DNA of 64,000 nucleotides. Origin: Bacteroidia bacterium (GTDB lineage Bacteria > Bacteroidota > Bacteroidia > UBA8524). The notes beneath the pieces are model-generated. The model saw only the letters and a list, made by a program, of their open reading frames with translations, searched no databases and was not told the origin of the DNA. Made by a program: the position numbers and the translations under genes. The stretch lies in the NCBI GenBank assembly GCA_037968475.1, contig JBBKVO010000017.1:78598-142597 (forward strand). Reading direction: 5' to 3'. Shown in pieces: positions 6,233 through 57,873 of this stretch (the first letter of the stretch is position 1; every line of letters starts with the position of its first letter).

Positions 6233-6940
6233 TTAAAAATTATAGCCAATACCCACTGAAGGAATAATATTTCTAACCTTTATATATCCATCAAGTGAGG
6301 ATCGACTGGTATAATTGCCATTCGTATACTGAGTAAACAAAACATTTTCAAATGTTGGTTTAGCAAACATATAATCCAGCGAAGCTAAAAAGCTAAAGTT
6401 ATTACTAAAATTACTTTTAAGCTGAATACCTAATGTACCTGTTAAAGCACTAATGGCAGATGAAGCGGTAATAAACTTAAATGTATTTCCTCCACCTGAT
6501 AAGGTGGTTTGCAGTTCTCCAATACCATAGCTTAAATAGCCGATTTTTAAATGGCCACCAACCACAGTATTGCCCGACGAGTAAAAATTATATCCCCATG
6601 TTGCTGATATACCCAGCCCTGCATACCCCCCTCCATTTGTTGAAGATAAAAAACTGGCCGATTGCTTTTCTATATTTGCATCATACTCATCAGTATTAAA
6701 GCCATTGGTAAAAAGTGATAACTGGCCACCTATATACAATTTGTTAATTGTATGCAAAAAGTCGGCTTGCAAATAAATACCTGTGGTGGCATAACTTGCA
6801 TTGTTTGAATTGTCGGTTTGTGAGTATTGACCGATTGGTATGGCTGAACCCACCTGAAAATTGATGCTGTTTTTTAGCTCTTGGGCTGAGCTATTTAATG
6901 CGAAAAAAAATGCAAGTAAAATTGTTAATAGTGATTTCAT
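6233..6940 (-). CDS. Outer-membrane beta-barrel (porin-like) protein with a signal peptide.
   Basis: N-terminal MKSLLTILLAFFFALNSSAQ. The body has alternating Gly/aromatic-rich beta-strand character and ends in a C-terminal aromatic (..GIGYNF). An 8-bp gap separates it from the upstream gene. Confidence 0.55.
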   Translation of the reverse strand: MKSLLTILLAFFFALNSSAQELKNSINFQVGSAIPIGQYSQTDNSNNASYATTGIYLQADFLHTINKLYIGGQLSLFTNGFNTDEYDANIEKQSASFLSSTNGGGYAGLGISATWGYNFYSSGNTVVGGHLKIGYLSYGIGELQTTLSGGGNTFKFITASSAISALTGTLGIQLKSNFSNNFSFLASLDYMFAKPTFENVLFTQYTNGNYTSRSSLDGYIKVRNIIPSVGIGYNF

Positions 6941-6947
6941 AGGTTTA

Positions 6948-9608
6948 TTAATTTGTTTGTCTTATTTTATTAATTCTAAATATCCAACGTGCTACTCTAT
7001 TAGTTTTTCCATCATTTCTTCTCAAAAGATTATGACCTAAAATCCCCATTCCTTCAATATCAGCTGTAAAAGGGTGTTGAAGTAGTGTGCGGATGTATTG
7101 TTTTATTAGTACCCTGTTTTCTTGATTTTCAAACAACAGTAAAATAAAAAATAGTATCTTATTGTATAATGATATATAAGGCTCAACAAGATGTGTAGGG
7201 CTACGTTTAAATGTATATTCAGGTGCTTTTTGGCTATAATTTGGTTTTATTGTAGAACTGTTAAAATTTAGTGTCTGGTACAATATTGGTTCTGTTCTTT
7301 TTTCTTTTTTGTCAAAATCAATGGCAAAGTAGGCTAAAGCCAAAACGGCTATATCTTTTATTAATGGTTCGCTTGCATTCATCCACCTATACATGGTTTG
7401 TTCAATGCCTGTGAGTGGTCGGCTTGAATACCAAAACGGATATCTTTCACCATCAATAATGGTATATGCAGGCGCGTTCTCTAGCCCTTGTCTTTGATGC
7501 CTATATATAGGCGTAAAGCATTTTATTATTTGTTGCCTATCATCAACTGCTGAATAACTAAATAAAAATTTTACTAATGGTAATGCCGCTTCAGTATCAA
7601 TAGCTATAAGCTTGCTTATAATTGCATAAAATAATGCTGGGTTCACTCTATCTTTACCCAATACATATAGCTCTTTTATAGTTTCGCACAATTGCAAAAA
7701 ATTTTGCTCGTTATTAATAGGTAGCTTTATGTATACGTTTAATACTGTTTGTAGTAATAACCCCGAGCTATTGTTTTCTTGTAAACAAATATTTGCCCAG
7801 TTGTTAAGCCATTCTTCAACCTCATCAGTATAATTTTCGTATGCCTCTAATAATCCATTAACAATAAATTCGCTTCGCTTTTCATTAGTTATAAATTCTG
7901 GCGTAAATAGGGGACGTATTTGGTAAAAATGATTTAATAATAGTTTTGATACTAAAACTTTATAATGCTCCGCAGTCAAATCAATAGGCTTATCAAGTAT
8001 GTATTCCACAAGCTTTATTACTTCTGCCGACAATTGGTTAGGGGCTTCATCTTCTGTAATATATTGTAGGGCACGTATAACTACATTATACAAATACCGT
8101 TTTGCACGTGGGCTTATAACTCCGCTAGTATTACCCTCATCACCATCGTGCAGTATATCCTCAATTTGTTTTCCCGCCTCATCATTTTCAAGCCATCGCC
8201 ATATCAACTTATACAATTGCTCTTCTTTGCCAAGTGATTTCCAGCGCACAATAGCCTTTGCTACAATGCGTTGCAAGCTGTCGTCGTTTGTTGCTGCCAG
8301 CTTAAGTAACTTGCTCTCAACAGCGGGTAGATACTCTAAACCTATGTCGCTAAAAGTTTCAGCAATGGTTTCTCTTAGTACCTGCCTTTTATGGCGAGTG
8401 CTGTGTAGCTCTTGCTTCATGTAGCTTTTATAGCGTGATTGTTGGGCAGCAGTTTCTAATACTGGTATAGCCGCAGCTATATGCCTACGATGGGTTTGCC
8501 AAGCGCAATGCAAAATTTCTGCCCGTTGAAAGGGGAAGCGGCTTTTGATTAATGTTCCTTTACCCGTTTCTCCGTCAAATTTAAAAAAGCCTAAAAGAAA
8601 ATCTAAATCAACATAATCTAAAGCATATAACGATGAATCACGATAATGCCAAAACTCTTCTGTTATCCGCCTCAACACCTCAAAAAACTGGTCTTCGTAT
8701 ACGCCATCTAATAATGCCGCAGCAATAACCATTAATTTTTCTTTTTCAGTATTAATGTTTTTAAACCAACGTGCAACAAGTGTATCTGTTTTATCTGAAA
8801 AACTATTCAGCAACGTATTAAGTGCATCAGCCAAAATGGGCTGTGGCTCTGCGGATAGCAAATCAATAAAGAACCTTACCTGCTCGGGAGTTTGAAATGA
8901 TGTAGCTATTTGAGCTATTGTTTTATTACCCGATAGTGTGGCATTGGTATCAATTTTTTTAGGCTTATTTTCAAAAGTTAAATGATATTTAGTTACACTA
9001 AGCTCGTATGCAAGCACATTAGCAATAGCTTCTTGGCTATAAAGGTTAGTAGAGGGAATTTGAAACCAATATTTTTTTTCTTGATGTGCCTTAAGTTGCC
9101 ATGTTTTTAATTCCAAATCAGTAATTAAAATAATATAATGCTTTCCTCTTGCTGCTTGGCACAACTCATCAGCATCAAACCCAATATTTTTTGGCGCAAA
9201 TTCATTTAAAATAAAAACTGTTGTGTCTTGTTTTTCTTTGATAAAAGAAAATAGTTCTTTCGGTTTTTTGTCTCCGGCAATTTTCTCTAATGTCGATTTA
9301 GATTCAATATCTTGCTCTAACAAATAAGCCAAATGTCGTGCAAATGCATCTTTATCAAACCCGGTTCCACCTGCTAAAATGATAAGGTTATTTTCTGTTA
9401 ACTGCCCAAGTAATAATAGCGTGAATACGGGGCTAATATAATTTTCAGGCGAGTACGAAGCGGTGTTAACAGTAATCCACTCTGTATCATAATAGTTTTC
9501 ATTAATCTGATCCCCACCAATTGCATTTTGGGCATTAATATTAATATTTCCTTCTGCTACAAACCCCACATTATTTATATTGGTCTCACTTATGTTATCC
9601 ATTATCAA
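6948..9608 (-). CDS. Large (886 aa) hypothetical protein. It has an N-terminal Gly/Asn/Ile hexapeptide-like motif, a degenerate P-loop-like segment (LIILAGGTGFDKD ... VFILNEF) and a long alpha-helical repeat region.
   Basis: Long clean ORF that starts 7 bp after the stop of the TIR gene. The Walker-A-like motif has G-x-x-G-F-D-K-D instead of GxxxxGK[ST]. The remainder is helix-rich and matches no family I recognise. Confidence 0.6.
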   Translation of the reverse strand: MIMDNISETNINNVGFVAEGNININAQNAIGGDQINENYYDTEWITVNTASYSPENYISPVFTLLLLGQLTENNLIILAGGTGFDKDAFARHLAYLLEQDIESKSTLEKIAGDKKPKELFSFIKEKQDTTVFILNEFAPKNIGFDADELCQAARGKHYIILITDLELKTWQLKAHQEKKYWFQIPSTNLYSQEAIANVLAYELSVTKYHLTFENKPKKIDTNATLSGNKTIAQIATSFQTPEQVRFFIDLLSAEPQPILADALNTLLNSFSDKTDTLVARWFKNINTEKEKLMVIAAALLDGVYEDQFFEVLRRITEEFWHYRDSSLYALDYVDLDFLLGFFKFDGETGKGTLIKSRFPFQRAEILHCAWQTHRRHIAAAIPVLETAAQQSRYKSYMKQELHSTRHKRQVLRETIAETFSDIGLEYLPAVESKLLKLAATNDDSLQRIVAKAIVRWKSLGKEEQLYKLIWRWLENDEAGKQIEDILHDGDEGNTSGVISPRAKRYLYNVVIRALQYITEDEAPNQLSAEVIKLVEYILDKPIDLTAEHYKVLVSKLLLNHFYQIRPLFTPEFITNEKRSEFIVNGLLEAYENYTDEVEEWLNNWANICLQENNSSGLLLQTVLNVYIKLPINNEQNFLQLCETIKELYVLGKDRVNPALFYAIISKLIAIDTEAALPLVKFLFSYSAVDDRQQIIKCFTPIYRHQRQGLENAPAYTIIDGERYPFWYSSRPLTGIEQTMYRWMNASEPLIKDIAVLALAYFAIDFDKKEKRTEPILYQTLNFNSSTIKPNYSQKAPEYTFKRSPTHLVEPYISLYNKILFFILLLFENQENRVLIKQYIRTLLQHPFTADIEGMGILGHNLLRRNDGKTNRVARWIFRINKIRQTN

Positions 9609-9614
9609 TATTTT

Positions 9615-10184
9615 TTATTTCTTGTTAGTGATAATATCTCTGCCTGCTACGTTTTTGCCGGTAATATTTATGTCGCCACCTATTGATACTGTGCCTGCAT
9701 CAGTTATATTTACTGCTGGTATTTGAGAAGGTTGTGATGTTTTTTTTGTAGATTTTACTATTTTTGGCTTGCAAGCACTAACTATTTGGCGTACAGCTTT
9801 GTCTGTATCATCACTTAGCTTTATAGCAAAATGGTTTTTTTGTAAAGGGAAATTTATTTCTACATCCTCAAAAGGGATATTGAATAATACCGGAATGATA
9901 ATTTTTTTATGCTTTGTTTCTAGGGCTACAGCTGCATTAAACTCTGTGCGTGTCCAAACACTTTTTATATAATTTTGGCTAATAATGGCAATAAAATATC
10001 TGCTTCGTGGTATAGCTTGCTGCAATATCGCCTCTTCCATATCATCCCCCGCATTTAAGTCTGAGCCAGAATACCAAACAGAAAGACCCGCCTCGCGTAA
10101 CTTGGCATTTAGCTCATTGGCTATAGCTGCCTTATCTTTATATGCGTGCGAAAGAAAAATATCGCATTTTTTGTGTTTAGCCAT
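9615..10184 (-). CDS. TIR-domain protein (189 aa) with a C-terminal extension ending in the motif VSIGGDINITGKNVAGRDII.
   Basis: DIFLSHAYKDK...LREAGLSVWYSGSDLNAGDD...AIPRSRYFIAIISQNYIKSVWTRTEF matches the bacterial/plant TIR consensus (D[IV]F[IL]SH, G..V[FW]..., S.W...E[LF]). The glutamate in the S.W..E motif (candidate NADase catalytic Glu) is retained. Confidence 0.8.
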   Translation of the reverse strand: MAKHKKCDIFLSHAYKDKAAIANELNAKLREAGLSVWYSGSDLNAGDDMEEAILQQAIPRSRYFIAIISQNYIKSVWTRTEFNAAVALETKHKKIIIPVLFNIPFEDVEINFPLQKNHFAIKLSDDTDKAVRQIVSACKPKIVKSTKKTSQPSQIPAVNITDAGTVSIGGDINITGKNVAGRDIITNKK

Positions 10185-10205
10185 TTATTAATTTATTTAA
10201 AAAAA

Positions 10206-10229
10206 CCTTTCGGGAATACACCCGAAAGG
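10206..10229 (-). terminator. Intrinsic-terminator-like hairpin (cctttcggg/cccgaaagg) followed on the minus strand by a U7 run. It sits 5-20 nt upstream of the TIR start codon.
   Basis: Read directly: 9-bp GC-containing stem, 6-nt loop, then A7 on the plus strand (T7/U7 on the minus strand). Confidence 0.45.
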
Positions 10230-10404
10230 CGAGGTTTAGATGTGGCTACTCAGAGCGCGATATAGCCAACACCTAATGTTTTTATAACTTCTTTGCGTCA
10301 AGTTTACCATTGGGTTCTTTGATAGATTAATCTGTTTTCCGAATGGTGGTTTGTTCTTTCCGAATAAATGGAGGGTTGCTATGTTTCCTGTGGGTAGACA
10401 GTTT

Positions 10405-10668
10405 CTACCCTTTAATGATATTTATTGAATATTTGATGTTAGCACTCCCTCCCCCAAGATCAATCACAATATTCCAATTACCTTTATGTGGAACTGATAT
10501 TCTTGCAGGAAGTATTTCATAGAAGCCTCCATAATATTTACAACTTCTACCTGATTTATAATTTGAGTAATTAGTATCATCCATAAGTTTGATATTACAT
10601 TGATGTGTGCATTTAACTTCTACAATATCACCAATGTTTAAATATTCTCGTTTATGTAAGAAATTCAT
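10405..10668 (-). CDS. Small hypothetical protein (87 aa), DUF1883-like.
   Basis: ORF with the pattern IGDIVEVKC.H.CNI.LMDD.NY.NYK.GR...YYGG......ARISVP..G.W..VIDLGGG. This resembles my recollection of the DUF1883 small beta-rich family; the assignment is from memory only. Confidence 0.4.
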   Translation of the reverse strand: MNFLHKREYLNIGDIVEVKCTHQCNIKLMDDTNYSNYKSGRSCKYYGGFYEILPARISVPHKGNWNIVIDLGGGSANIKYSINIIKG

Positions 10669-10685
10669 GATAATTTTTATAGTTT

Positions 10686-11258
10686 CTAAATTTTACCAAG
10701 TTCTTTTAAACGCCAAAAACATTTTGCAGTAATCGCAATATCAATAGATGCATCATGTGCATCTTCAAATTCTTCTCCAAACAACGTATAATGAAGCTCC
10801 TGAAGTTTAGGCCATTTATAGCCTCCAAAACTTCCGGGAATTGCACAAAAACCTGTGGTACTCATCATAGTGCATACTTTGATTTTAGCAGGGATCACGT
10901 TGATCATTCCTTTTCGTATAAATTCAGCACCAACAATTTTTTCATCAAAACTCATATTATGAGCAACTAAGACTTTAGAATTATCAAGTTGATTATTGAA
11001 GTTTTGAAGAACTTCATACAGACTCTTGCCTTCTCTTCGGGCACGTTCAGTTGAAATTCCATGGATGTTAGTTGATTCAGCTGGAATCGAAAAACCTTCT
11101 GGTTTTATAATAAAATTCTCTTCAAGAAGTTTTGTTCCTGCATCATCGTATAAGAGATAGGCTAATTGCACCATACGTGGCCAATTATTAACATCAGTTA
11201 CTGGTGATTTCCAATTATTGGGTAAACCAGTCGTTTCGGTGTCAAAAAATAGATACAT
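10686..11258 (-). CDS. DEDD-family 3'-5' exonuclease (DnaQ/epsilon-like, standalone).
   Basis: Exo I FFDTETTGL, Exo II LVAHNMSFD and Exo III (Y-x3-D) HDASIDIAITAKCF are all present. Confidence 0.8.
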   Translation of the reverse strand: MYLFFDTETTGLPNNWKSPVTDVNNWPRMVQLAYLLYDDAGTKLLEENFIIKPEGFSIPAESTNIHGISTERARREGKSLYEVLQNFNNQLDNSKVLVAHNMSFDEKIVGAEFIRKGMINVIPAKIKVCTMMSTTGFCAIPGSFGGYKWPKLQELHYTLFGEEFEDAHDASIDIAITAKCFWRLKELGKI

Positions 11259-11277
11259 TTTATTTATTTTAATTAAA

Positions 11278-11715
11278 TCAATAACAAATTTTACAAGCCC
11301 TATAGCCTGAGTTTTGCGCTTGGGTTTTGGTTACATTACTGGTGCCAGCCTTGCATCGATTTAGCCCGTGGCAGTAGTGTGAGTGATATGCATAGGCACT
11401 TTTACTATTACAAATAATTACGGTGGTTTCCTTTGGGGGGGCTTGTTTTGCTGCACTTGGTTTTTGTGTGCTTAGATGCTCTTTGGCCACATAGCCCTTT
11501 AGAGTGTCGTAAACCGTAATATTTGCCCAATCACCCGTTTCAAAATTCACAGTAACCCCAGCCCCTTTGTTAAGAGTAGTTTTTATTGTGGCTGTTGTAT
11601 TGGGTTGGCTTCTAACGTTTAGTTTATCAGCAGTTACATAATGGGTTATTACTGCCTTTACTGTAAATGCTAAAAAAAATAATGAGCCAAAAAATATTAT
11701 TAGTTTCGTTTTCAT
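11278..11715 (-). CDS. Secreted SH3b-domain protein with a C-terminal Cys/His motif (YH..YCHGL..C...A...GY..CK.C).
   Basis: Signal peptide MKTKLIIFFGSLFFLAFTVKA. The bacterial SH3-like segment is LNVRSQPNTTATIKTTLNKGAGVTV...WANI. The Cys-rich tail is shared with the next gene. Confidence 0.55.
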   Translation of the reverse strand: MKTKLIIFFGSLFFLAFTVKAVITHYVTADKLNVRSQPNTTATIKTTLNKGAGVTVNFETGDWANITVYDTLKGYVAKEHLSTQKPSAAKQAPPKETTVIICNSKSAYAYHSHYCHGLNRCKAGTSNVTKTQAQNSGYRACKICY

Positions 11716-11722
11716 AGTAAAT

Positions 11723-12004
11723 TTATTTAGTTATGGTTGGTATTGGTGCATTGCAACGCTTGCAGGGCGTAAACCCTTTTTGTTTTGCAAGTGATAAGCT
11801 AAGCGGTGTTTTGCTGGATGCTAAAGCACCGCAGTTTGCTGTATGATATTTTTTACCTGTTTTGGTAATGTATACTTGCTGTTGAGTTTTAACCGAACTA
11901 GCCGTACACGAAGCTATTGATAGGGCAATGCTGCATATAGTAATAAGCCTTGCCACTTGTTTTTGCACTTTTGATGCGCTTGCTATTTGGTTTTGATAAA
12001 ACAT
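11723..12004 (-). CDS. Small secreted/lipoprotein-like protein (93 aa) with the same C-terminal motif (KKYH..NCGAL...A...GF.PCKRC).
   Basis: ORF in a 7-bp-spaced tandem with 11278..11715. Hydrophobic N-terminus. The C-terminal motif can be aligned to its neighbour. Confidence 0.5.
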   Translation of the reverse strand: MFYQNQIASASKVQKQVARLITICSIALSIASCTASSVKTQQQVYITKTGKKYHTANCGALASSKTPLSLSLAKQKGFTPCKRCNAPIPTITK

Positions 12005-12108
12005 TCTATTTTACTGAAATCAATAGCAAGTTCACTTCTTTGTATTTCAGCAGATAGTTTGTTTTCCTAAAGGGTTACTATTTTTTCCTAATAGACTTTT
12101 TTAATTTT

Positions 12109-13242
12109 CTAACGTATTTGCTGCAAAAACCAGTAGCTCCCTTTTTTTTCAAACACCAAGGTTTCTTGAGGTTTAAATCCCAAAAGGGTTACTGTTCGGT
12201 TTTGCCGGTGGTTTGAAGGCGAAAGTTTAAGATTTATTTCAGCGCACCTTAAAAATTGAGTATAAGCAATATCAATCTCACACAGTCCGTTACCTATTCT
12301 TTTACCCACAATTTCATATTGAACAGGCTCAATATTTATAAGGCTATACAAAAGGCTACTATCGTTTTCTTGTTTAAATATATAGGGGCGATATTGTAAT
12401 AAACCAAAAGGTGCTTCGGCTAATGAGGTATTACTAATTATTCCATTGCTTTTTAAACCTGTTAATGATTGTATATGCTCCATACCATTATAAAAATTAT
12501 AATGGTTTCTGTGTGATGTAATCGTGTGTTGGAAATATAGGCCTTGCTGTTTTTGATTTATAGCTTCAAGCGTGCTTAGCTTGCCGTTTTTTAATACTAA
12601 AACTTCTTGAAAATGGTTTTTAACAAGGGCATCCATTTCTCCTTTACGTTTTTCAACAACTTGATTTATTTCAGTTTTTGATGGCTGTAATGATTGCCTA
12701 TGTGATAGAAAAAGTGCTAGTAAATAAAAAAGCCCCAGCACTATAAATAAATTCCGTATAAATATTTTTTTCTTTTTTATAAAATGCAAACCAAATGCAC
12801 AGTTGTAGTAAACTGCTGGTTTTGGTTCAATTTTTTTAACAATTTCGCTAATTATTGTGTCAATATTAGTTTCTACTACTGCCCATCGATGAAGCAAATC
12901 AGGTTTCTCAGCAGTTACTTCCTCAATAGTTATGTTGTATAATATGGGTACAAATTTTTTGTTTTTTCTTTTCAGTTCTTCCAGTTCTACATGCGCCCAA
13001 TAACTATTATAGTTGTGGGTAATAAGTGCTATGCCTAATCTGTTGTTTTTTAGCCCTTCATAAATTCTATCGGCAATATTATCGCCGGGTTCAAATTCTT
13101 TTTTAGCATACCAAACCCTTAGCCCATGCTCGGTTAGCTTGTTGTATATTTCATTAACAAGCTCTCTGTCTTCTATAACATAAGAGATAAAAATATCGTG
13201 GGTTTTGGGTCCTTCAAACAACATATAGTATATATTGTTCAA
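12109..13242 (-). CDS. TIR-domain protein with a central transmembrane helix and a ~200-aa C-terminal domain of unknown function.
   Basis: The N-terminal HDIFISYVIEDRELVNEIYNKLTEHGLRVWYAKKEFEPGDNIADRI...GIALITHNYNSYWAHVELEEL is a TIR domain and retains Glu in the SxW..E motif. A strong hydrophobic segment follows (IFIRNLFIVLGLFYLLALFLS). The true start may be the internal M at MLFEGPK. Confidence 0.75.
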   Translation of the reverse strand: MNNIYYMLFEGPKTHDIFISYVIEDRELVNEIYNKLTEHGLRVWYAKKEFEPGDNIADRIYEGLKNNRLGIALITHNYNSYWAHVELEELKRKNKKFVPILYNITIEEVTAEKPDLLHRWAVVETNIDTIISEIVKKIEPKPAVYYNCAFGLHFIKKKKIFIRNLFIVLGLFYLLALFLSHRQSLQPSKTEINQVVEKRKGEMDALVKNHFQEVLVLKNGKLSTLEAINQKQQGLYFQHTITSHRNHYNFYNGMEHIQSLTGLKSNGIISNTSLAEAPFGLLQYRPYIFKQENDSSLLYSLINIEPVQYEIVGKRIGNGLCEIDIAYTQFLRCAEINLKLSPSNHRQNRTVTLLGFKPQETLVFEKKGSYWFLQQIR

Positions 13243-18059: not shown

Positions 18060-18506
18060 TTGCACTTCATCTTAACTTCGCATAACATGAAAGTTCGCCT
18101 TACCAAAGAACAAAAGATAAAGATTGCCAATAGTGATGATGTATTTAAGGTAATGCAAGCAGTATTGCTTAGGCAAAACAAATTACACCGCAGGAAAGAA
18201 TACTTTTGGTCGATAGGATTGAATACAGCTAATGACATTCTTTATATTGAGTTGGTAACTTTAGGAGTACTTAATAAAGTAAATGTTGACCCTGTTGAAC
18301 TATTTAGCTTTGCTGTACAGAAAAAGTGTAAGAAGATTATATTGGTGCATAACCATCCTTCAGATAATGTAACCCCCAGTGCTGATGATATTGCTTTAAC
18401 CCACCATTTGGTAACGGGAGGTAGTTATCTGAGTATAGAAATATTAGACCACATTATTATTACTGAAGAGAAGTTTTACAGTATGGCTTCAAGTGGGTTG
18501 GTGTAG
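18060..18506 (+). CDS. RadC-like JAB/MPN domain protein (DUF2466); the start is probably at the internal Met, 18087.
   Basis: HNHPSDNVTPSADDIALTHHL...LDHIII matches the RadC JAB metalloprotease signature (HNHPSG..PS..D). This family is frequent on mobile elements. Confidence 0.75.
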   Translation: MHFILTSHNMKVRLTKEQKIKIANSDDVFKVMQAVLLRQNKLHRRKEYFWSIGLNTANDILYIELVTLGVLNKVNVDPVELFSFAVQKKCKKIILVHNHPSDNVTPSADDIALTHHLVTGGSYLSIEILDHIIITEEKFYSMASSGLV

Positions 18507-19738
18507 AGTCTTTGAGCTCAACAACGTGTTGTTGCATCCTTTGTTTCATCCAATATCCCACATCATAGGATATGGAAATCAGTCAGAGCCAAGCCTTTAA
18601 ATCGGCTAAATCAATTTCGTAAGCCTTCATTTCTAATATTGCATTAGTCCTAAAAAATCAGAAACACTAACATCCCTCCTTTGGTAATAAAGTTGTTGTG
18701 CCTGTCGTTGGCTATACATCTACAATACCAATAGCAACATCTTAACCCCTTTATTTAACTGGTAGAGTTCAAATAAGCATTGCTTCAAATAAGAATTGCC
18801 CTTACCTCACCACTTTTTTGCAACTGCATATGCTCACACATCTACTGTAGATATAAAAAATACTGTATTGCTATCTATAAATCCCCTGTTTTTGTTCTGT
18901 TGCAACACTGCGTTGCTCTTTATTCAACCCTTTGTTTTTATAGTGTTTTAAGATAGTTTATATATACAGCATTCTTTTTCTCCTTAGCTCTGACATCGGT
19001 CTGATACGGTTTTTACTTTACAGTTTTTGAGATGTTTTTATCAAACTGACGTGGACTTTTTGCAAAGAAAGCATAGGGTATTATATTATAAGTATTTGAT
19101 TTATTCGTCTCAGTTAAATTCTTAATCGATATAACACAGCTTTATTTTTCACACAAGTATCCTTTTCCAACAACTCGTTGCTGCCTTTCGAATGACCTGT
19201 TGTCTTCTCTTCTGAGAATTGTCACGTCCTTTAAATACCGCTGAAGCTGCGAAATATATTGATGTGGCTAATGGGACGAGGTATAAATTCACACAAAGTA
19301 GAGCTATTCCATATTTAAAAGGGGGTAAGCGTTCATGTGTTCTTTTTTATTGCTGACCTTTAACAATTGGATACGCGCCTGTAAGCAAATGACAGTTAAG
19401 GAGATTGAAGATGAAGCATCATATCATTGAAACGAGGGAGTTATAAGATATACCTTCAATTTAAACGAACTAAAATTTTTAAGGAAAAATGTTAGAAACA
19501 ATAATTTTACAAGCTGATTTTTTTATCGGATATTTAATTAATGGAGATTAAAATTATATGACAAGATATTCAAGAGCATGAATGATATTTTGTAATTCAA
19601 AACTTCGACAGTTATATCCTTTGGATGACAACGCGCTCCTTCTAATTCGTCCATAATCATAACGCACTTTAAGTGGTTATTTTCAAATCTTATCATTGGC
19701 ATATTAGCACATTCACTAATCAGCACATTGAAGAAGAA

Positions 19739-20083: not shown

Positions 20084-20173
20084 AAAAATATTTTTCTGCT
20101 CTTTGTTGTGCTGTCTCAATAAACATCAATATTGACGATGAGATGCTGAAATAAGTTCAGCATGACTGCACAA

Positions 20174-23828: not shown

Positions 23829-24086
23829 TTTTTTGTTATCCCCCTAGCCCCTTCTTTAGCGTGCTTTTCAACCCATAAGTGGGACTTGAATCGGCAAAAC
23901 TTATTGCCTTTTTTTAAATTTAAAATATAGGTTCAGTTTTGGATTAAATACTATCTACCAAAAGAGAATACTCACAGTTATTGCTTTACACAAATGATGA
24001 TTGTGCAGCGGCTACCGAACTGATTATTATGGCTAAAACTACTACTATATAGCGCATTGCTGCGAAGATAGGAGATTTTACAAAGA

Positions 24087-24797: not shown

Positions 24798-24947
24798 TAT
24801 ATTTTACAAAACTACAAATTAATGCTAATAGTATAAAGTTACGAAATAGAGGATTAATGATACGAGTGCTGTGTCCCCCTTGTGTGAAGGAATATTGAGC
24901 TGTGCGAAAAATAAGTGTGCCAGCGAAGGGGTTAGGGGGATGAAAAA

Positions 24948-29356: not shown

Positions 29357-29491
29357 TTGCTTTCTTATTATTGCTAGATTGACTTCTTAGGCTGTTGAAG
29401 CAATCTTGCAGAAACAACACAAACAGATTGCTTCGGAAGACCTTGCAATGACGCGACGTTGGGCAGTCATCCTGAACTTGTTTCAGGATCT

Positions 29492-29845
29492 CATTCCCCA
29501 ATTCATGTGTAATGCATATCGAGATCTCGAATCCCGAATACTTTCGGGATCAGCATGATGGGAGGCTTCTCTTATGGCAGCAACAAACTGCTATCACCAT
29601 AGCTAAGAAAACCGGAAGTTCCTTCAAGCGTCTGCGCTTGAAGACTGTGAATTGTAGCGTCCCGCTACTAGTAAGCAAGCGGTAACGCTTGTATATATAA
29701 TCCTTAAGCGAGGACGCTTAAGGGAACGAGCGCATTTCATTCCCCAATTCATATGTAATACATATCGAGATCCTGAAATAAATTCGGAATGACAGGCGGC
29801 TGATTACGGCAGCAACAAACTGCTATCGCCATAGCTAAGAAAACG
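29492..29845. repeat. ~246-bp direct duplication (copies at 29492-29615 and 29738-29845). Copy 2 includes the queA 3' end, so copy 1 re-creates the last 8 codons plus stop of queA.
   Basis: Both copies contain cattccccaattcat[g/a]tgtaat[g/a]catatcgagatc and ggcagcaacaaactgctatc[a/g]ccatagctaagaaaac; read directly. Confidence 0.7.
29622..29723. other. Array of four consecutive stem-loops with related stems ((c)aagcg-N4-cgctt(g), gtagcg-tcc-cgctac), one with a GNRA (gtaa) loop.
   Basis: Inverted repeats at 29622-29643, 29654-29668, 29675-29692 and 29702-29723, read directly. Confidence 0.5.
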
Positions 29846-31021
29846 ATAATCGTTTTCAAGCGCAGCGTTGTAAATCGTTTTCCAGTTCCCACCCACAAGT
29901 GCATCAACCAACAACAGCAGGGTAGAGGTAGGCTGATGAAAATTAGTAACCAAACCTTTGCATATTTTAAACTCATAACTAGGGGCGATTAAAAGTTCGG
30001 TTTCGCCAATCAACTGTTCCAATTGGTGCTTTTGCATAAAATTTAAAACAGCTTGCAAGCTTTCCGTCGCATCAATATTTTTAGCAGTAGTATATGGGCT
30101 TAGTTTATCAATTAAAAACTCGTGGTTAGTTTCCGTTAGCAATTTTACGCCATACCAATACAAGCTTTCAAGTGTGCGCATACTAGTTGTTCCTACAGCA
30201 ATAGTGTGGGCATGGTGTGCCAATACGTTCTCAATATTTTGACGGGTATATACCACCTGCTCGCGGTGCATAGGGTGAGTGCTTAGGTCTTTCACCTTCA
30301 CAGGTTGGAAAGTGCCCGCGCCAACGTGCAGCGTTAAAAAATCTTTGCCAATTCCTTTCTTCTCTAGCGCATCAAAAACAGCATCCGTAAAGTGTAAACC
30401 TGCTGTGGGTGCCGCTACCGAACCATCGTTTTTGGCATATACCGTTTGGTAGGTTTCGCGGTCGCTATCTGTGCTTTCACGGTTTAGGTAGGGCGGTATG
30501 GGTATTTGTCCCACTTGTCCCAATAATTCTGATAAGGTAATATGTTCAGGTTGCCAGCTTATTTGTACGTGCAGTCTTTCTCTGTTGCTTAGTTGGGCTT
30601 GTATATTAATCTCTTCGCCGTTAAGTTGCAGTTTACGCTCAAGCACTTCGTCGTTTTTCCATTTTTTTAGGTTACCCACCAAACACTCAAACGTAGCACT
30701 GCCTTGGGCAGCCATAGTTACCGATGTAATGCGAGATGGCAATACAGGGTGTAGCAAAAACACCTCAATTAGCGCGCCTGTAGCCCTGCGAAAATGCAAA
30801 CGGGCAGGTATTACCTTAGTATTATTAAAAAATAAAAAACTGTTTGCAGGCAGTAAATCGGGCAATTGGGCAAACTGTTTATGCTCAACCTTTCCACCCT
30901 TGTATAGCAATAACTTCGATTGGTCTCTAGCCGCCAACGGATATTTGGCTATTCGTTCATCGGGCAGGGGGTAGTTATACTCCTCAAGGTCTATTTGTTG
31001 CAGTTGTTCCAGTTTATTCAT
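29804..31021 (-). CDS. queA: S-adenosylmethionine:tRNA ribosyltransferase-isomerase.
   Basis: MNKLEQLQQIDLEEYNYPLPDERIAKYP... is a typical QueA N-terminus and the full length is conserved. The start was taken at the internal Met rather than the ORF-track Met at 31087. Confidence 0.85.
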   Translation of the reverse strand: MNKLEQLQQIDLEEYNYPLPDERIAKYPLAARDQSKLLLYKGGKVEHKQFAQLPDLLPANSFLFFNNTKVIPARLHFRRATGALIEVFLLHPVLPSRITSVTMAAQGSATFECLVGNLKKWKNDEVLERKLQLNGEEINIQAQLSNRERLHVQISWQPEHITLSELLGQVGQIPIPPYLNRESTDSDRETYQTVYAKNDGSVAAPTAGLHFTDAVFDALEKKGIGKDFLTLHVGAGTFQPVKVKDLSTHPMHREQVVYTRQNIENVLAHHAHTIAVGTTSMRTLESLYWYGVKLLTETNHEFLIDKLSPYTTAKNIDATESLQAVLNFMQKHQLEQLIGETELLIAPSYEFKICKGLVTNFHQPTSTLLLLVDALVGGNWKTIYNAALENDYRFLSYGDSSLLLP

Positions 31022-31125: not shown

Positions 31126-31174
31126 AAATTACAATGCGAAGCGGAACTTAAAGTTCCGCTTCGCATTGTAATTT
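31126..31174. repeat. 48-bp perfect palindrome (aaattacaatgcgaagcggaactt|aagttccgcttcgcattgtaattt).
   Basis: Read directly. Its arm termini are shared with the palindrome at 57771-57818. Confidence 0.7.
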
Positions 31175-35453: not shown

Positions 35454-36106
35454 AGAAAATAAATATTGTACCCTCAGCAACTAGCGATATTGATTTTATT
35501 ACCACTGCCGTTTTTGCAGCCGTAAAAAGTGGTACTGATATTCTTACCTACTCAACCCTTTTTGAAAAAAGTGAAGAAGAACTTCTACCCTTGTTTAAAG
35601 AAATGATTAAAGAAGATATAGAGGGGCAAGAACTTTGGCTAAGCGGCTTTTTATTAGCCGAAGAGTACGACGGCACACCTGCTGCTACTTGTTGTGCTTG
35701 GATAGAGGGAGAAAAAGGTCCATCTTCTATGCTGACGGCACAGTTACTCTCGTTTACATTAGGTACTGAAACCTATAAAAAAGCACTTGAGAAACAGGAG
35801 GTGATAGAAAGTATGAGGATAGACCGTGCGGAAGGTGCAGTACAAATAGAACACGTATACACCGCCCCTAACTATAGAGGTAGAGGCTTGGCGGCGCGGG
35901 TAATTGAAAAGCAAATAGAGCTTTATAAATTCATACAACCTGAAATACAAAAAGCACAAATTATACTATTTAAAACCAATCAAAACGCACTAAACGCCTA
36001 TACCAATATGGGGTTTAAAATAGTAAAAGAGCAGCATAGCAATCATCCGCAAGTGCTGGATTACTTCCCTGCCAATACAAGGGTATTGATGGAAAAAGAT
36101 ATTTAG
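35450..36106 (+). CDS. GNAT-family acetyltransferase-like protein.
   Basis: VYTAPNYRGRGLAARVI is the acetyl-CoA-binding motif A (R/Q-x-x-G-x-G/A). The ORF overlaps the upstream stop by 4 nt. Confidence 0.5.
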   Translation: MKKINIVPSATSDIDFITTAVFAAVKSGTDILTYSTLFEKSEEELLPLFKEMIKEDIEGQELWLSGFLLAEEYDGTPAATCCAWIEGEKGPSSMLTAQLLSFTLGTETYKKALEKQEVIESMRIDRAEGAVQIEHVYTAPNYRGRGLAARVIEKQIELYKFIQPEIQKAQIILFKTNQNALNAYTNMGFKIVKEQHSNHPQVLDYFPANTRVLMEKDI

Positions 36107-36121
36107 CTCAAAAATTTTCGA

Positions 36122-36440
36122 TAGGTATAAAACCCATCGTTTTGAAGTTACACCATAGCTGGCGCGCGCGTCCGCTCGTGCCAAGAATAATAGAGCGTCC
36201 GCTCGACAGTGAAATGCTATTGGTTGTTTTTTTCATCCCCCTGCCCCCCTTCGCTTACGAGCTTATGTTTCACTCCTTCGACTCCGCTCAGGATGACAGC
36301 GCACAAAGAGGATAATGCAGGGCTTATCATCTTGATAAAAGACGCAAAACCAAAGGGTAGTGGCGTGGCTTCCCTCCTTGTGCCGTCGTCCTGAGCGAAG
36401 TCGAAGGGTTGTGTACTGATAAGGAGGGATTGAGGGTGGT
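36122..36440. repeat. Composite intergenic repeat element (modules M1-M3). Module M3 is present in direct (36271-36320) and inverted (36384-36412) orientation and forms a long imperfect hairpin.
   Basis: M1 is ggtataaaacccatcgttttgaagttaca and M2 is gagcgtccgctcg (twice). M3 is ctccttcgactccgctcaggatgacagcgcacaaagagg. Homologous copies lie at 39543-39665, 42005-42100 and 57745-57780. Confidence 0.65.
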
Positions 36441-36500
36441 AGAGAAGTTGACGTATTGATTTTAATAAGTCTCTTAACCCAAACTTCCCGTTATTTAAAC

Positions 36501-37760
36501 TTACCTATTCAAAATAGCTTTGGCGTAGTTTTCCCAACTTAGTAATTTAGCAGTTTCAGTAATGTTTTGACGCGGTATGGGGTGTTCAATAAATCGTTCC
36601 ATTTGTGCCGCCATACTGTCAATATCCTCAGCTTCGGCAAGGTAGCCGTTAAAACCGTCTTTTATAGTTTCAGGAAAATGTCCCACTTTGGTAGCCAGCA
36701 CAGGCACATTAAAATTGTACGATAAACTTTCTACACCCGATGGTGTGGCCGTAAGATAATACAACAGCACTACATCACTCACCTGCCAATATTTATTCAC
36801 CTCTTCGTTAGGCACAAATCGGTTCACAATCACCGTGCGGTCTTGTAAATTCAATTCATCCACCAAATCAATAGGTCTATAATCCTGCTCGTTATCACTG
36901 TTTTTCAGTACTAACGATTTTGCAAATTTGAATAGGTTTTGTTTTATCCGTGTGCCTAGTTTTTTATTGTCCAGCGTATTCCAAAACGATTCGCCCACAA
37001 TAAGTAAACTCACATCATCACGCTTATCGGCCACCTTTTTAAATGCTTTTATGGCATTGTGCAACCCCTTGTATTTACGTATAAACCCAAAATACAAAAA
37101 CACGTATTTGCGTAGGCCAAGTTCAGTTTTTACCGCCTCCATATTAAAATTGGGGTCGGGTTGGTATAAATCGTATATGGGGTGGTATAGTTTTATTACC
37201 GTATTTGTGCCGTCTTTAGCCCTATCGCCCGTTTCGTTTACCGTTATTTTTAGTTCGGGTAAAGTACTGGTTAGTTCATCCACCGTTTTATAGGCATGGG
37301 TGAGGTAGGTATTGGCTTTTTTTAGCCCGTAGCGGGTAAAAAATTTATCTACGCTACTGCTCTCTTTTTGCACCACAAGGTGGCAATCAAAAATCACCTC
37401 AATATTGGTTTTCAGCAATCGGCGCGCCATCCAGCCCATAGGTAAACCCTGCAAAGCAATAGCCCACTGAAAAATAACCATATCGGGCTTTAACCCTTTT
37501 ATCAAACTAACTGTTTTTGCCCAACTAAAAGGGTTATTATAGTTGGTGATGTAAGTTACCTTTATGTTAGTCCCTTCCAAATGGTCGGTTTTACTGCTAC
37601 GATCAATAAAATCTCGCGGAATAATGGCAGGGTATTGTTGTGTCCACGATACTATGTGTACCTCAACCCCCAACTTATCCAAAGCCTTTGCCAGCGATGT
37701 ATTGTAATTACTAATTCCTCCTTTAAACTGTGGGCCGGGCCCAAATAAAACTGCTTTCAT
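36501..37760 (-). CDS. Glycosyltransferase (GT4/GT1-like).
   Basis: Two Rossmann-like halves. C-terminal ..VGHFPETIKDGFNGYL is a GT-B donor-binding motif. Confidence 0.65.
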   Translation of the reverse strand: MKAVLFGPGPQFKGGISNYNTSLAKALDKLGVEVHIVSWTQQYPAIIPRDFIDRSSKTDHLEGTNIKVTYITNYNNPFSWAKTVSLIKGLKPDMVIFQWAIALQGLPMGWMARRLLKTNIEVIFDCHLVVQKESSSVDKFFTRYGLKKANTYLTHAYKTVDELTSTLPELKITVNETGDRAKDGTNTVIKLYHPIYDLYQPDPNFNMEAVKTELGLRKYVFLYFGFIRKYKGLHNAIKAFKKVADKRDDVSLLIVGESFWNTLDNKKLGTRIKQNLFKFAKSLVLKNSDNEQDYRPIDLVDELNLQDRTVIVNRFVPNEEVNKYWQVSDVVLLYYLTATPSGVESLSYNFNVPVLATKVGHFPETIKDGFNGYLAEAEDIDSMAAQMERFIEHPIPRQNITETAKLLSWENYAKAILNR

Positions 37761-37782: not shown

Positions 37783-38586
37783 TTGAAACTAAGTTTTAAA
37801 AATGAAAATATTCAAGTAGATTACATTAAATTTCTATCTATGGTATTACTCTTTCCAAAAAAAGATATAGCTCAACCTCCTTTTCATCTTTCGGAGGGAA
37901 TGTCAAGTTTTACTATTGTTATTACTGTAGGGCTGATTACAATTGTCACTGTAATCATTTTAAGAATTCTAAATAAAAGGTTAATAAAAATTGAAGATGA
38001 ATCAAATGTTACTGAAAATATTATTAATGATGATGACTACGAATATTATTTAAAAACTAATGTTCTCGATGATATTGAAGAAAATATATCTGAATACAAT
38101 ATCTCCCAAAAAGAAGCAAAAAAAAGAGCATACAGCTTTTTATATTTAGGCTTTCTGATTGCAACTATAGGTCTAATTATATTTCTATTTTTAATAATTG
38201 TTCCTATTAGCTATTTCTTTAACCTGTATTCTTCCTCAGAAATAAGCAATATTGCTTTGCTTTTTATAAGCAAGTTTAGTGTTTTTATATTCATAGAGTC
38301 CATCGCGTTTTATCTATTTAGACAATACAGACTTAATATGGATGACTATAAATATTTTGATTCCCTTAAAAGACAAATAATTGGGAATAAAATTTTATTC
38401 AAAATAAAACACCAATACCCAGAGGCGTATAATGATTTAAAAATAGATATGAAGTTGTTTGACAATCCCGATAAACTGCAAAATGGGGAAACTACAATTA
38501 GTGTAAAAAACAGACGACTTACTCAAAACGATGACGTTTTTATCAATAAACTAACCGAATCCATATTGAACAAATTAGGAAAGTAA
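37783..38586 (+). CDS. Hypothetical membrane protein.
   Basis: ORF with several hydrophobic helices; the start is uncertain. Confidence 0.35.
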   Translation: MKLSFKNENIQVDYIKFLSMVLLFPKKDIAQPPFHLSEGMSSFTIVITVGLITIVTVIILRILNKRLIKIEDESNVTENIINDDDYEYYLKTNVLDDIEENISEYNISQKEAKKRAYSFLYLGFLIATIGLIIFLFLIIVPISYFFNLYSSSEISNIALLFISKFSVFIFIESIAFYLFRQYRLNMDDYKYFDSLKRQIIGNKILFKIKHQYPEAYNDLKIDMKLFDNPDKLQNGETTISVKNRRLTQNDDVFINKLTESILNKLGK

Positions 38587-39542: not shown

Positions 39543-39665
39543 CTGCTGGCATGAGCGTCCGCTCGGAAGTGGGATTGTTTTTTCCTGCGCTGTCTTTCGC
39601 ACTCCTTCGACTTCGCTCAGGATGACAATGCACAAGGGAGACAATGCTGTGCTTTGAACATAGAG
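39543..39665. repeat. Copy B of the dispersed intergenic repeat (M2+M3).
   Basis: gctggcatgagcgtccgctcgg ... cgcactccttcgacttcgctcaggatgacaatgcacaagggag. Confidence 0.65.
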
Positions 39666-41960: not shown

Positions 41961-42004
41961 GGTTGGTTATTAGTTGTTTGTGATTGATAAACCAGTGTGA
42001 AGAA

Positions 42005-42100
42005 TCATCCCCCTGCTCCCTTCGCTACCGCACTTATCCTTCATCTCCACTCAGGATAATACCACACAAGGGGGACAATGCTTTGCAAGCACCGCCTATC
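42005..42100. repeat. Copy C (degenerate) of the dispersed intergenic repeat.
   Basis: catccccctgctcccttcgctaccgcactt...ctccactcaggataataccacacaagggggacaatgc aligns to 36235-36330. Confidence 0.55.
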
Positions 42101-57744: not shown

Positions 57745-57818
57745 GTAGGTATATAAAACCCATCGTTTTGAAATTACAACGCAAAAGAGGGCTTTAAGCC
57801 CCCTTTTGCGTTGTAATT
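57745..57818. repeat. M1 repeat module followed by a 48-bp near-perfect palindrome (aaattacaacgcaaaagagggcttt|aagcccccttttgcgttgtaattt).
   Basis: M1 is ggtatataaaacccatcgttttgaaattaca, the same module as at 36124. The palindrome arm ends are identical to the 31126-31174 palindrome. Confidence 0.65.
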
Positions 57819-57873
57819 TTTAATAGAATAGAATTTAAAATTCTATTAGTTTACATCCTCACTGAATAATACT

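Follow-up and report, generated by a model that had tools for sequence, protein, structure and literature searches.

Tagged Hairpin Repeats in the Intergenic DNA of a Bacteroidia Genome: Probable Recognition Sites of Small GIY-YIG Nucleases

Introduction

Are the short repeats at positions 36122-36440 of a 64,000-nucleotide stretch of the genome of a Bacteroidia bacterium (assembly GCA_037968475.1, contig JBBKVO010000017.1; the whole stretch is called the window below) parts of one mobile element, and if not, what are they? The host genome belongs to the Bacteroidota and has a GC content of about 38%. A sequence-only reading had described three modules in this spacer, M1, M2 and M3, as a single modular family resembling miniature inverted-repeat transposable elements (MITEs) or repetitive extragenic palindromes (REPs). 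The present analysis indicates that this spacer, which has related spacers at about 39.5, 42.0, 24.9 and 29.4 kb, is a mosaic of small palindromes, and that the core of M3 is a CGTC/TGTC-tagged hairpin, most likely the recognition repeat of a clade of single-domain GIY-YIG nucleases of about 100 amino acids. The region is a mosaic of the kind known as bacterial interspersed mosaic elements (BIMEs), with at least three unrelated kinds of small palindrome. Neither the spread of the M3 core across phyla nor its link to GIY-YIG genes was part of the earlier reading.

Repeat Modules in the Window

The three modules recur far above chance at the places where they had first been noticed. The M3 core, CCTTCGACTYCGCTCAGGAYGAC, is present at 36275-36297 (+), 36385-36407 (-) and 39604-39626 (+), and shuffled sequence contains no match to it. 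A 55-nt version of M3 has 84% identity at site B, at about 39.5 kb, and 67% identity at site C, where a degenerate copy occupies 42034-42088. M2, GAGCGTCCGCTCG, has three copies (36166 with one mismatch, 36193 and 39553) where 0.16 are expected by chance, and the two copies of M1, 36126-36152 and 57752-57778, are identical at 26 of 27 bases where none are expected. Every module copy lies in intergenic DNA. The spacer of site A, 36107-36500, separates two convergent genes, a GNAT gene and then a glycosyltransferase gene on the opposite strand; site B likewise separates a RidA-like gene from a PLD-like gene, and the second M1 copy is also in a convergent-gene spacer. Site C is the spacer of two tandem genes on the same strand.

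Anatomy of the M3 Core Hairpin

The M3 unit reads TGTCA, then N2-CT, then GAGCGNAGTCGA, then AG-N2′. It forms a directional hairpin with an unpaired tag, a stem of 4-5 base pairs in which the bases are free but pair in Watson-Crick fashion, and an invariant 12-nt top, GAGCGNAGTCGA. The evidence for the stem comes from 63 hairpins gathered by the 12-nt top alone, with the flanks left free, none of them chosen by the original pattern. In this unseeded set the two variable stem positions are paired in 97% and 92% of the sequences, as compared with 39% and 44% after shuffling, and the flanking four-base pairs include CACT/AGTG, GGCT/AGCC, GTCT/AGAC, TGCT/AGCA, GTTC/GAAC and others. In the covariation count 96% of the cells are paired and there are 92 double-sided changes against 26.9 in the shuffles, none of 500 shuffles reaching 92; sliding the stem partner by 1-3 columns reduces pairing to 32-51%. 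The tag, made up of the five bases 5′ of the stem, is nearly invariant: it reads TGTCA in 40 of the 63 hairpins, CGTCA in five and AGTCA in four, and the last tag base pairs no more frequently than in shuffles. The three intact copies of the window carry the tags TGTCA, CGTCG and TGTCA. After the palindrome, AGGATC is frequent in the copies of other genomes, and the canonical tagged hairpins of the window carry a C.

At site A two M3 cores face each other, as the earlier reading had recognized. The arms of this inverted pair, 36275-36303 and 36379-36407, are 29 nt long and 86% complementary, and are accompanied by extra 11-nt arms at 36301-36311 and 36373-36383. This dimer, 36271-36410, can also close into one long hairpin; folded as DNA, 36262-36422 gives -37.3 kcal/mol (z = -7.0). 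A public short-read (Logan) assembly contig of the locus, 5.4 kb in length, terminates inside the repeat.

Four loci of other genomes (L077, L078, L088 and L086) contain tandem runs of the tag-side half alone, such as (GTTCAGGATGACA)n and repeated TGTCATCTCGAACTCCCACC, so that the tag-side half-site itself appears to be a copied unit. A hammerhead or other ribozyme, considered from the motif CUGA...GAA, was ruled out by inspection, as the order of the core elements is unfit.

Distribution across Phyla and Genomic Location

A scan with the exact 23-mer, taking one genome per species, found it in at least 119 genome stretches from many phyla. Among the matches listed are Bacteroidota (Flavobacterium, Pedobacter, Chryseobacterium, Sphingobacterium and Chitinophaga), Acidobacteriota (Acidobacteriaceae, including isolate KBS 146), Verrucomicrobiota, Eremiobacterota, Planctomycetota, Scalindua, Firmicutes, Clostridia, Proteobacteria, Gammaproteobacteria, Chloroflexota, Gemmatimonadota, Fibrobacter, Spirochaetota, Peregrinibacteria, Saccharimonadales and other candidate-phylum lineages. 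The flanks are unrelated between genomes, each having its host's own composition, and conservation ends after about 28 nt; a BLAST comparison of the window spacers with every fetched locus gave matches to the core alone, about 25 nt. The papers found by searching the literature for the sequence string were all unrelated, most of them concerning primers or markers.

Of 185 hairpins in the fetched loci, 153 (83%) occupy intergenic DNA or a gene edge; a crude call of open reading frames (ORFs) puts the coding share of this DNA at about 86%, and 35% of hairpins, against a background of 21%, are in convergent spacers. Abutting GAC-GTC dimers are found in three loci (L005, L036 and L076). A minority of core hairpins lie within long ORFs, in L115 (about 1375-1398), L057, L073, L042 and L100; in L115 the 23-mer is apparently in frame in the C-terminal part of the protein, akin to the in-gene REP copies described for Rickettsia. 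For genome annotation, these hairpins are spread over many phyla, break assemblies and may seed spurious small ORFs.

Association with Small GIY-YIG Nuclease Genes

When all ORFs of the 119 hairpin-bearing loci were clustered, one recurrent cluster emerged, consisting of proteins of 83-107 amino acids that match the Pfam family GIY-YIG (PF01541) with E-values of 1e-15 to 1e-19. No transposase family, and no protein family other than GIY-YIG, recurs beside the hairpins in these loci. Searches with tblastn placed GIY-YIG genes in L022 (frameshifted), L030, L039, L070, L082 (Spartobacteria), L086 (a metagenome-assembled genome labelled Ruminococcus) and L132, and in all of them but L070 the gene is among or near hairpins of the family. 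The L086 gene is ringed by arrays of TGTCATC half-sites and by GAGCTTGTCGA-type hairpins, and a Pedobacter gene is ringed by hairpins with GAGCGTAGTCGA tops.

The association also holds in the reciprocal direction. Homologues were picked by protein similarity only, and their contigs, about 49 kb in all, were fetched from Pedobacter, Flavobacterium, Cyclobacteriaceae, Bacteroidales and Chitinophagales. In each of the five, GAGCGNAGTCGA hairpins lie to both sides of the gene or run over its called 3′ end, at no more than 182 nt, and 14 of the 15 GAGCGNAGTCGA hairpins in these loci are less than 200 nt from the gene. Taken over both searches, the repeat is found on both sides of a small GIY-YIG gene in L030, L039, L022, L086, L082, L138, L139, L147, L149 and L150.

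In L139, L147 and L149 (also L140-L146 and L148) the flanked GIY-YIG gene lies between genes for a type I-like restriction helicase and an N6-methyltransferase. This operon is seen in three orders of the Bacteroidota, and one of the loci adjoins AbiE genes. The nuclease cassette can therefore be embedded in a restriction-modification operon. NCBIfam has no family that reaches its cut-off for the flanked nucleases.

Comparison with Known Repeat Systems

Two published systems resemble the M3 hairpin. The first is the superfamily of CGTC-tagged REPs. According to Di Nocera, De Gregorio and Rocco (BMC Genomics 2013, PMC3733652), the tag in these repeats is often TGTC, the stems are 8-9 bp long and start with AT, the loops are 4-5 nt and a 3-nt tail follows; head-to-head dimers predominate, the repeats occupy the spacers of convergent or same-direction ORFs, now and then an in-frame copy is found inside a gene, and four families are described from five phyla, including Bacteroidetes (Gramella forsetii). 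That paper reports no dedicated transposase and no Y1 gene flanked by the repeats. M3 fits this superfamily and shares with it the tag, the AT start of the stem, the short tail, the head-to-head dimer, the intergenic location and the lack of a Y1 transposase, and two other hairpins of the window, 29465-29492 and 20140-20167, fit the full definition with an 8-bp stem starting with AT and a 5-nt loop. Folded as DNA, these two give -6.1 kcal/mol (z = -4.0) and -6.7 kcal/mol (z = -4.7), respectively. M3 itself differs in having a stem of 4-5 bp with a 12-nt top, instead of an 8-9 bp stem with a loop of 4-5 nt, and its range of phyla is far wider than the published five. The type with the GAGCGNAGTCGA top is not among the family descriptions in the available part of that paper, nor is its core in the available supplements.

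The second system is that of the Ssn nucleases. Until 2025 the CGTC-type repeats were without a known partner enzyme. For binding by Neisseria SsnA, a single-domain GIY-YIG protein of 94 amino acids, the NTS repeat, CGTCATTCCCGCGMAVGCGGGAATCYRG, has to be single-stranded DNA; the protein does not bind RNA, and it cleaves just one strand, a few bases 5′ of the repeat (Chenal et al., Nat Commun 2025, PMC11893778). Cutting requires the bases immediately 5′ of the palindrome, and binding requires the C that directly follows it, the base that matters most for binding. Ssn homologues across bacteria are flanked by their own Ssn-related motifs (SRMs), and this SRM-ssn-SRM layout is the mark of site-specific nucleases for single-stranded DNA; in Neisseria the system makes transforming DNA integrate less, and the authors raise an origin like that of insertion sequences (PMC11893778). 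M3 is similar in that its hairpin has a direction, carries a (C/T)GTC-A tag on the 5′ side of the palindrome and is dispersed between genes. In other genomes, single-domain GIY-YIG genes of about 100 amino acids carry the repeat on both sides, and groups of nucleases have their own repeat variants, as in L086 and Pedobacter. The architecture is different, since M3 has a free stem of 4-5 bp and an invariant 12-nt top while NTS has a GC-rich stem of 8 bp and a 4-nt loop. M3 thus resembles SRMs in its tag, its direction, its hairpin and its flanking of a small GIY-YIG gene, and it is outside the published SRM definition. Tagged REP or SRM-like repeat is a more accurate label than MITE.

These comparisons extend the GIY-YIG link to a different hairpin architecture and to the Bacteroidota and Verrucomicrobiota; the main text of PMC11893778 does not mention Bacteroidota. 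As the published SRM pattern misses the M3 type, the size of the system is probably underestimated. Ssn enzymes are under development as site-specific cutters of single-stranded DNA, and the clade with the 12-nt top and free stem is a candidate for a new specificity.

Turnover of the Repeats in the Window Lineage

In the window the M3 core is set in a lineage-specific unit of about 95 nt, which consists of a "pre" module (GTTTTTTTCATCCCCCTGCCCCCCTTCGCT..CACTTAT), the core in reversed orientation and a "post" module (GCACAAGGGGGACAATGC). Copies of this composite are present at sites A, B (with a partial pre), C and E (24860-24945, -), and pre fragments are found near 23829 and 61146. In the old copies, C and E, the flanks are better kept than the core. 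The composite flanks were found in no other fetched genome locus or metagenome stretch, and a metagenome scan for the extended composite CAGGATGACANNGCACAARGRG returned 12 stretches, none of them with the composite.

How the sites have changed can be seen from L133, a relative that shares the gene order and has a GNAT protein of 84% identity; a shorter contig (L134) covers site A only. At site A, L133 has both M2 palindromes and lacks about 290 nt, from just past M2 to the stop codon of the glycosyltransferase gene. At site B it has M2 and lacks about 137 nt, starting directly after M2. The decayed copy of site C is at the same position in L133 with 93% identity, and M1 is not present in L133. 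The presence of M2 at the same positions in the relative implies that M2 is older than the M3 blocks, and the absence of the M3 blocks at sites A and B implies that they have been gained or lost since the lineages split. Both polymorphic blocks adjoin the same side of an M2 palindrome (two cases), and comparison of the filled sites with the empty L133 sites reveals no target-site duplication at either of them.

M1, M2 and M3 are therefore different repeat families with different histories and not parts of one element: M2 predates the M3 blocks, M1 has two copies only and is absent in the relative, and site C is an old shared copy. The two blocks that L133 lacks bear out turnover, and the single family is not borne out. 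The window holds more members than first described, with further tagged hairpins at 29424, 29767 and 20140, the composite at 24860-24945 and the two pre fragments. The sequence at 29466, earlier taken for a diverged fragment of M3, is a full hairpin in its own right, aGTCATCCTGAACTTGTTTCAGGATCTC; only its first 10 bases, GTCATCCTGA, are in common with M3.

M1 is outside the tagged-hairpin family, and no copy of it was found among about 150 loci fetched from other organisms. M2 is a member of a second small hairpin family, with copies at 29627, 29656, 29718 (-), 36194 and 39554, in which the inner AGCG-TC(n)-CGCT is fixed and the outer stems vary yet pair (TTCA/TGAA, GT/AC and CTTA/TAAG). A further difference from the relative lies between the glycosyltransferase gene and the gene for a 155-aa protein, where the window has an AT-rich ORF of 267 amino acids (37783-38586, +) with membrane-like hydrophobic stretches and no Pfam match. 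In L133 the two genes are just 9 nt apart, so the 267-aa ORF is an insertion of about 810 bp in the window lineage.

Proposed Function and Alternatives

By analogy with SsnA, an Ssn-like protein would bind the M3 hairpin in single-stranded DNA and cut a few bases 5′ of the tag, the predicted target being the hairpin sequence TGTCATCCTGAGCGAAGTCGAAGGATC. The directional, unpaired tag agrees with one-strand cutting of this kind. The copies of the window would then be sites for binding and nicking whenever the strand is single, as in replication, in repair or on the entry of foreign DNA, and the spread of copies and the local rearrangements could be by-products of nicking. Because the 64 kb contain no GIY-YIG gene, we infer the nuclease activity in this host: a matching nuclease encoded in the window genome would cut single-stranded DNA at these sites and would have its role there.

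Several observations weigh against this interpretation. The published SRM pattern, HGTCWYN(0-2)YYVSBRHN(0-5)WNVSBRGN(0-2)RNCYNB, matches the NTS control but none of eight window or consensus hairpins, nothing in the window and nothing in eight GIY-YIG loci. The three intact M3 copies of the window are without the C after the palindrome, ending in AGGAGTG or AGGGTTG. No GIY-YIG gene was found by tblastn in the window or in the relatives' loci. The nearest solved structures to the flanked nucleases are the UPF0213 proteins BH0048 and EF2693 (1zg2 and 1ywl), and a profile search of the PDB for a structure of SsnA yielded nothing but UPF0213 and Slx1-type entries. The same helicase/GIY-YIG/methylase operon accounts for three of the five reciprocal loci, in different bacterial orders, so these loci may share ancestry and may not be fully independent. 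Homing of the nuclease gene into the hairpins, as opposed to action on them, could also produce the link between gene and hairpin. Finally, nearest-neighbour energies of a single M3 hairpin are -1 to -3.4 kcal/mol, no better than those of shuffles, and in order to fold, the hairpin would depend on a bound protein or on non-canonical pairs in its 12-nt top. A weak energy together with a covarying stem points to selection for a shape outside standard energy models; one possible form of the top is a C-GNA-G mini-hairpin with a bulged T, enclosed by tandem G·A pairs, or else a protein may read the shape.

The same association may be carried further than recognition. The cassette of hairpin, GIY-YIG gene and hairpin could move autonomously and represent a mechanistically new class of mobile element, with a GIY-YIG single-stranded DNA nuclease in the place of a transposase, with solo hairpins and dimers such as 36271-36410 as its non-autonomous offspring and with the GAGCGNAGTCGA top as a nuclease specificity spread by horizontal transfer across phyla. 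Such spread would explain why an identical 23-mer is found in the native intergenic DNA of many phyla. We put this forward tentatively and consider it doubtful.

An improbable alternative is that the repeats act mainly as RNA, as terminators, 3′-end stabilisers or small RNAs at convergent gene ends. REPs of Escherichia coli influence mRNA decay and termination, the copies described here are at gene 3′ ends and enriched between convergent genes, and the inverted dimer is strong as RNA on both strands (z = -4.7 and -7.1 for the whole site A spacer). However, the tagged strand is the same as that of the upstream gene in 78 cases and opposite in 77, and this balance makes a strand-specific role as RNA less likely. 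As RNA the single hairpin is weak, the unpaired directional tag and the invariant 12-nt top point to a sequence-specific binder and not to a generic stem, and SsnA does not bind RNA. Rfam has no match to any part of the window at the gathering threshold, and up to E = 10 there are just two chance-level matches on 36050-36520. The long tag-to-tag dimer may still have a secondary effect as RNA and may impede transcription between the convergent genes, as a side effect and not as the reason for conservation across phyla.

It is more improbable still that these are classical REPs or REPINs that owe their mobility to a Y1 (HUH) tyrosine transposase, either RAYT or IS200/IS605-like. The likeness to the REP, REPIN and BIME systems with RAYT in E. 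coli and Pseudomonas is considerable, comprising tagged hairpins with a tetranucleotide foot 5′ of the hairpin, inverted doublets that fold into long structures, mosaic intergenic clusters of several repeat types and insertion without target-site duplication. The foot in those systems is GTAG (GT[AG]G), though, whereas the M3 tag is TGTCA, and their enzyme is Y1 HUH whereas M3 is linked to GIY-YIG, the only family that recurs beside the hairpins in the 119 loci. RAYT-type REPs are species-specific (PMC6006769), while the M3 core is identical across phyla. No transposase Pfam match was found in about 50 ORFs of the window, and Di Nocera likewise reports no Y1 gene with CGTC repeats at its sides (PMC3733652).

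That the composite is a MITE left by an insertion sequence of the DDE type is barely credible, for although it is short, non-coding, multi-copy, present or absent relative to L133 and has an inverted repeat inside, its inverted arms are internal and not terminal, its copies hold different subsets of modules, filled and empty sites differ without target-site duplication and the extended composite was found in no other organism (12 metagenome stretches; core only in the genome loci). Since the M3 blocks have neither terminal inverted repeats nor a target-site duplication, they are not classic MITEs; the REP-like half of the earlier label is the one that fits, in view of the tagged and covarying hairpin, the intergenic location and the inverted dimers.

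Positions of the Repeats and Other Features of the Window

Table 1. Repeat features of the window, with positions, strand (. where none is assigned) and remarks.
Feature	Position	Strand	Remark
M1 copy 1, ataggTATAAAACCCATCGTTTTGAAGTTACA	36122..36152	+	short repeat; begins 16 nt past the GNAT stop codon
M2 copy a, imperfect GC-rich palindrome GCTGGCGCGCGCGTCCGCTCGTGCC	36157..36181	.	same position in L133 and L134
M2 copy b, GAGCG-TC-CGCTC(G)	36193..36205	.	L133 keeps GAGCGTCCCGCTC; the polymorphic M3 block starts directly after
Pre module, GTTTTTTTCATCCCCCTGCCCCCCTTCGCT...CTTATG	36226..36270	+	common to copy C, copy E and L133
M3 core hairpin, left arm, minus strand TGTCA-TCCT-GAGCGGAGTCGA-AGGA-GTG	36271..36298	-	
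85-nt spacer between the facing tags	36299..36383	.	ends 36301-36311 and 36373-36383 lengthen the inverted repeat
M3 core hairpin, right arm, CGTCG-TCCT-GAGCGAAGTCGA-AGGG-TTG	36384..36410	+	tag-to-tag (head-to-head) dimer with 36271-36298
M2 copy of site B, CTGGCATGAGCGTCCGCTCG	39546..39565	.	L133 counterpart TTGGTGCGAGCATCCGCTCG; the polymorphic M3 block starts directly after
M3 core hairpin of site B, minus strand TGTCA-TCCT-GAGCGAAGTCGA-AGGA-GTG	39600..39627	-	
Post module, ATGCACAAGGGAGACAATGCTGTGCTT	39628..39654	+	common to copies A, C and E
Composite copy C (pre, decayed core, post)	42003..42088	+	old; 67% identity; same position in L133, 93% identity
Composite copy E	24860..24945	-	pre and post retained, core unrecognisable
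M1 copy 2	57745..57778	+	overlaps the start of a terminator-like palindrome with 24-bp arms, 57771-57819
Canonical tagged hairpin, aGTC-ATCCTGAA-cttgt-TTCAGGAT-CTC	29465..29492	+	8-bp stem starting AT, 5-nt loop, C directly after the palindrome
Tagged hairpin, cGTC-ATTGC-aaggtcttccgaa-GCAAT-CTG	29424..29453	-	
Tagged hairpin, tGTC-ATTCCGAA-tttat-TTCAGGAT-CTC	29767..29794	-	imperfect
Tagged hairpin, aGTC-ATGCTGAA-cttat-TTCAGCAT-CTC	20140..20167	-	stem change compensatory relative to the 29465 hairpin

The tagged hairpins near 29.4 kb are interleaved with a tandem duplication with a period of about 240 bp (29485-29630 and 29731-29862). It takes in the last 59 nt of queA (29804-29862 against 29572-29630, 83% identity) and a 44-nt block (89%). 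The interleaving suggests a repeat-associated rearrangement.

The palindrome entered by M1 copy 2 has a counterpart at 31126-31174. Both have 24-nt arms, which are 100% complementary at 31126-31174 and 96% complementary at 57771-57819, and both are downstream of genes and terminator-like. They have the outer stem AAATTACAAYGC in common and differ in their centres. At site A, a 14-nt inverted repeat, 36114-36127 and 36502-36515, is 86% complementary and encloses the whole spacer; its right arm consists of the final codons of the glycosyltransferase gene, and its origin is probably chance.

A scan of the window for tRNA genes found none. The minus-strand ORF cluster at 6233-13242 is a possible defence island, with two TIR_2-domain proteins (9615-10184 and 12109-13242), an 886-aa ORF unmatched in Pfam (6948-9608), an RNase_T-type exonuclease (10686-11258) and an SH3 protein (11278-11715). 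The segment 16941-19738, which holds a RadC-like JAB gene (18060-18506) and then a stretch of 1232 nt without credible ORFs, may be the remains of an integrated element; this stretch includes a 45-aa fragment that resembles an excisionase-type DNA-binding protein (19219-19356).

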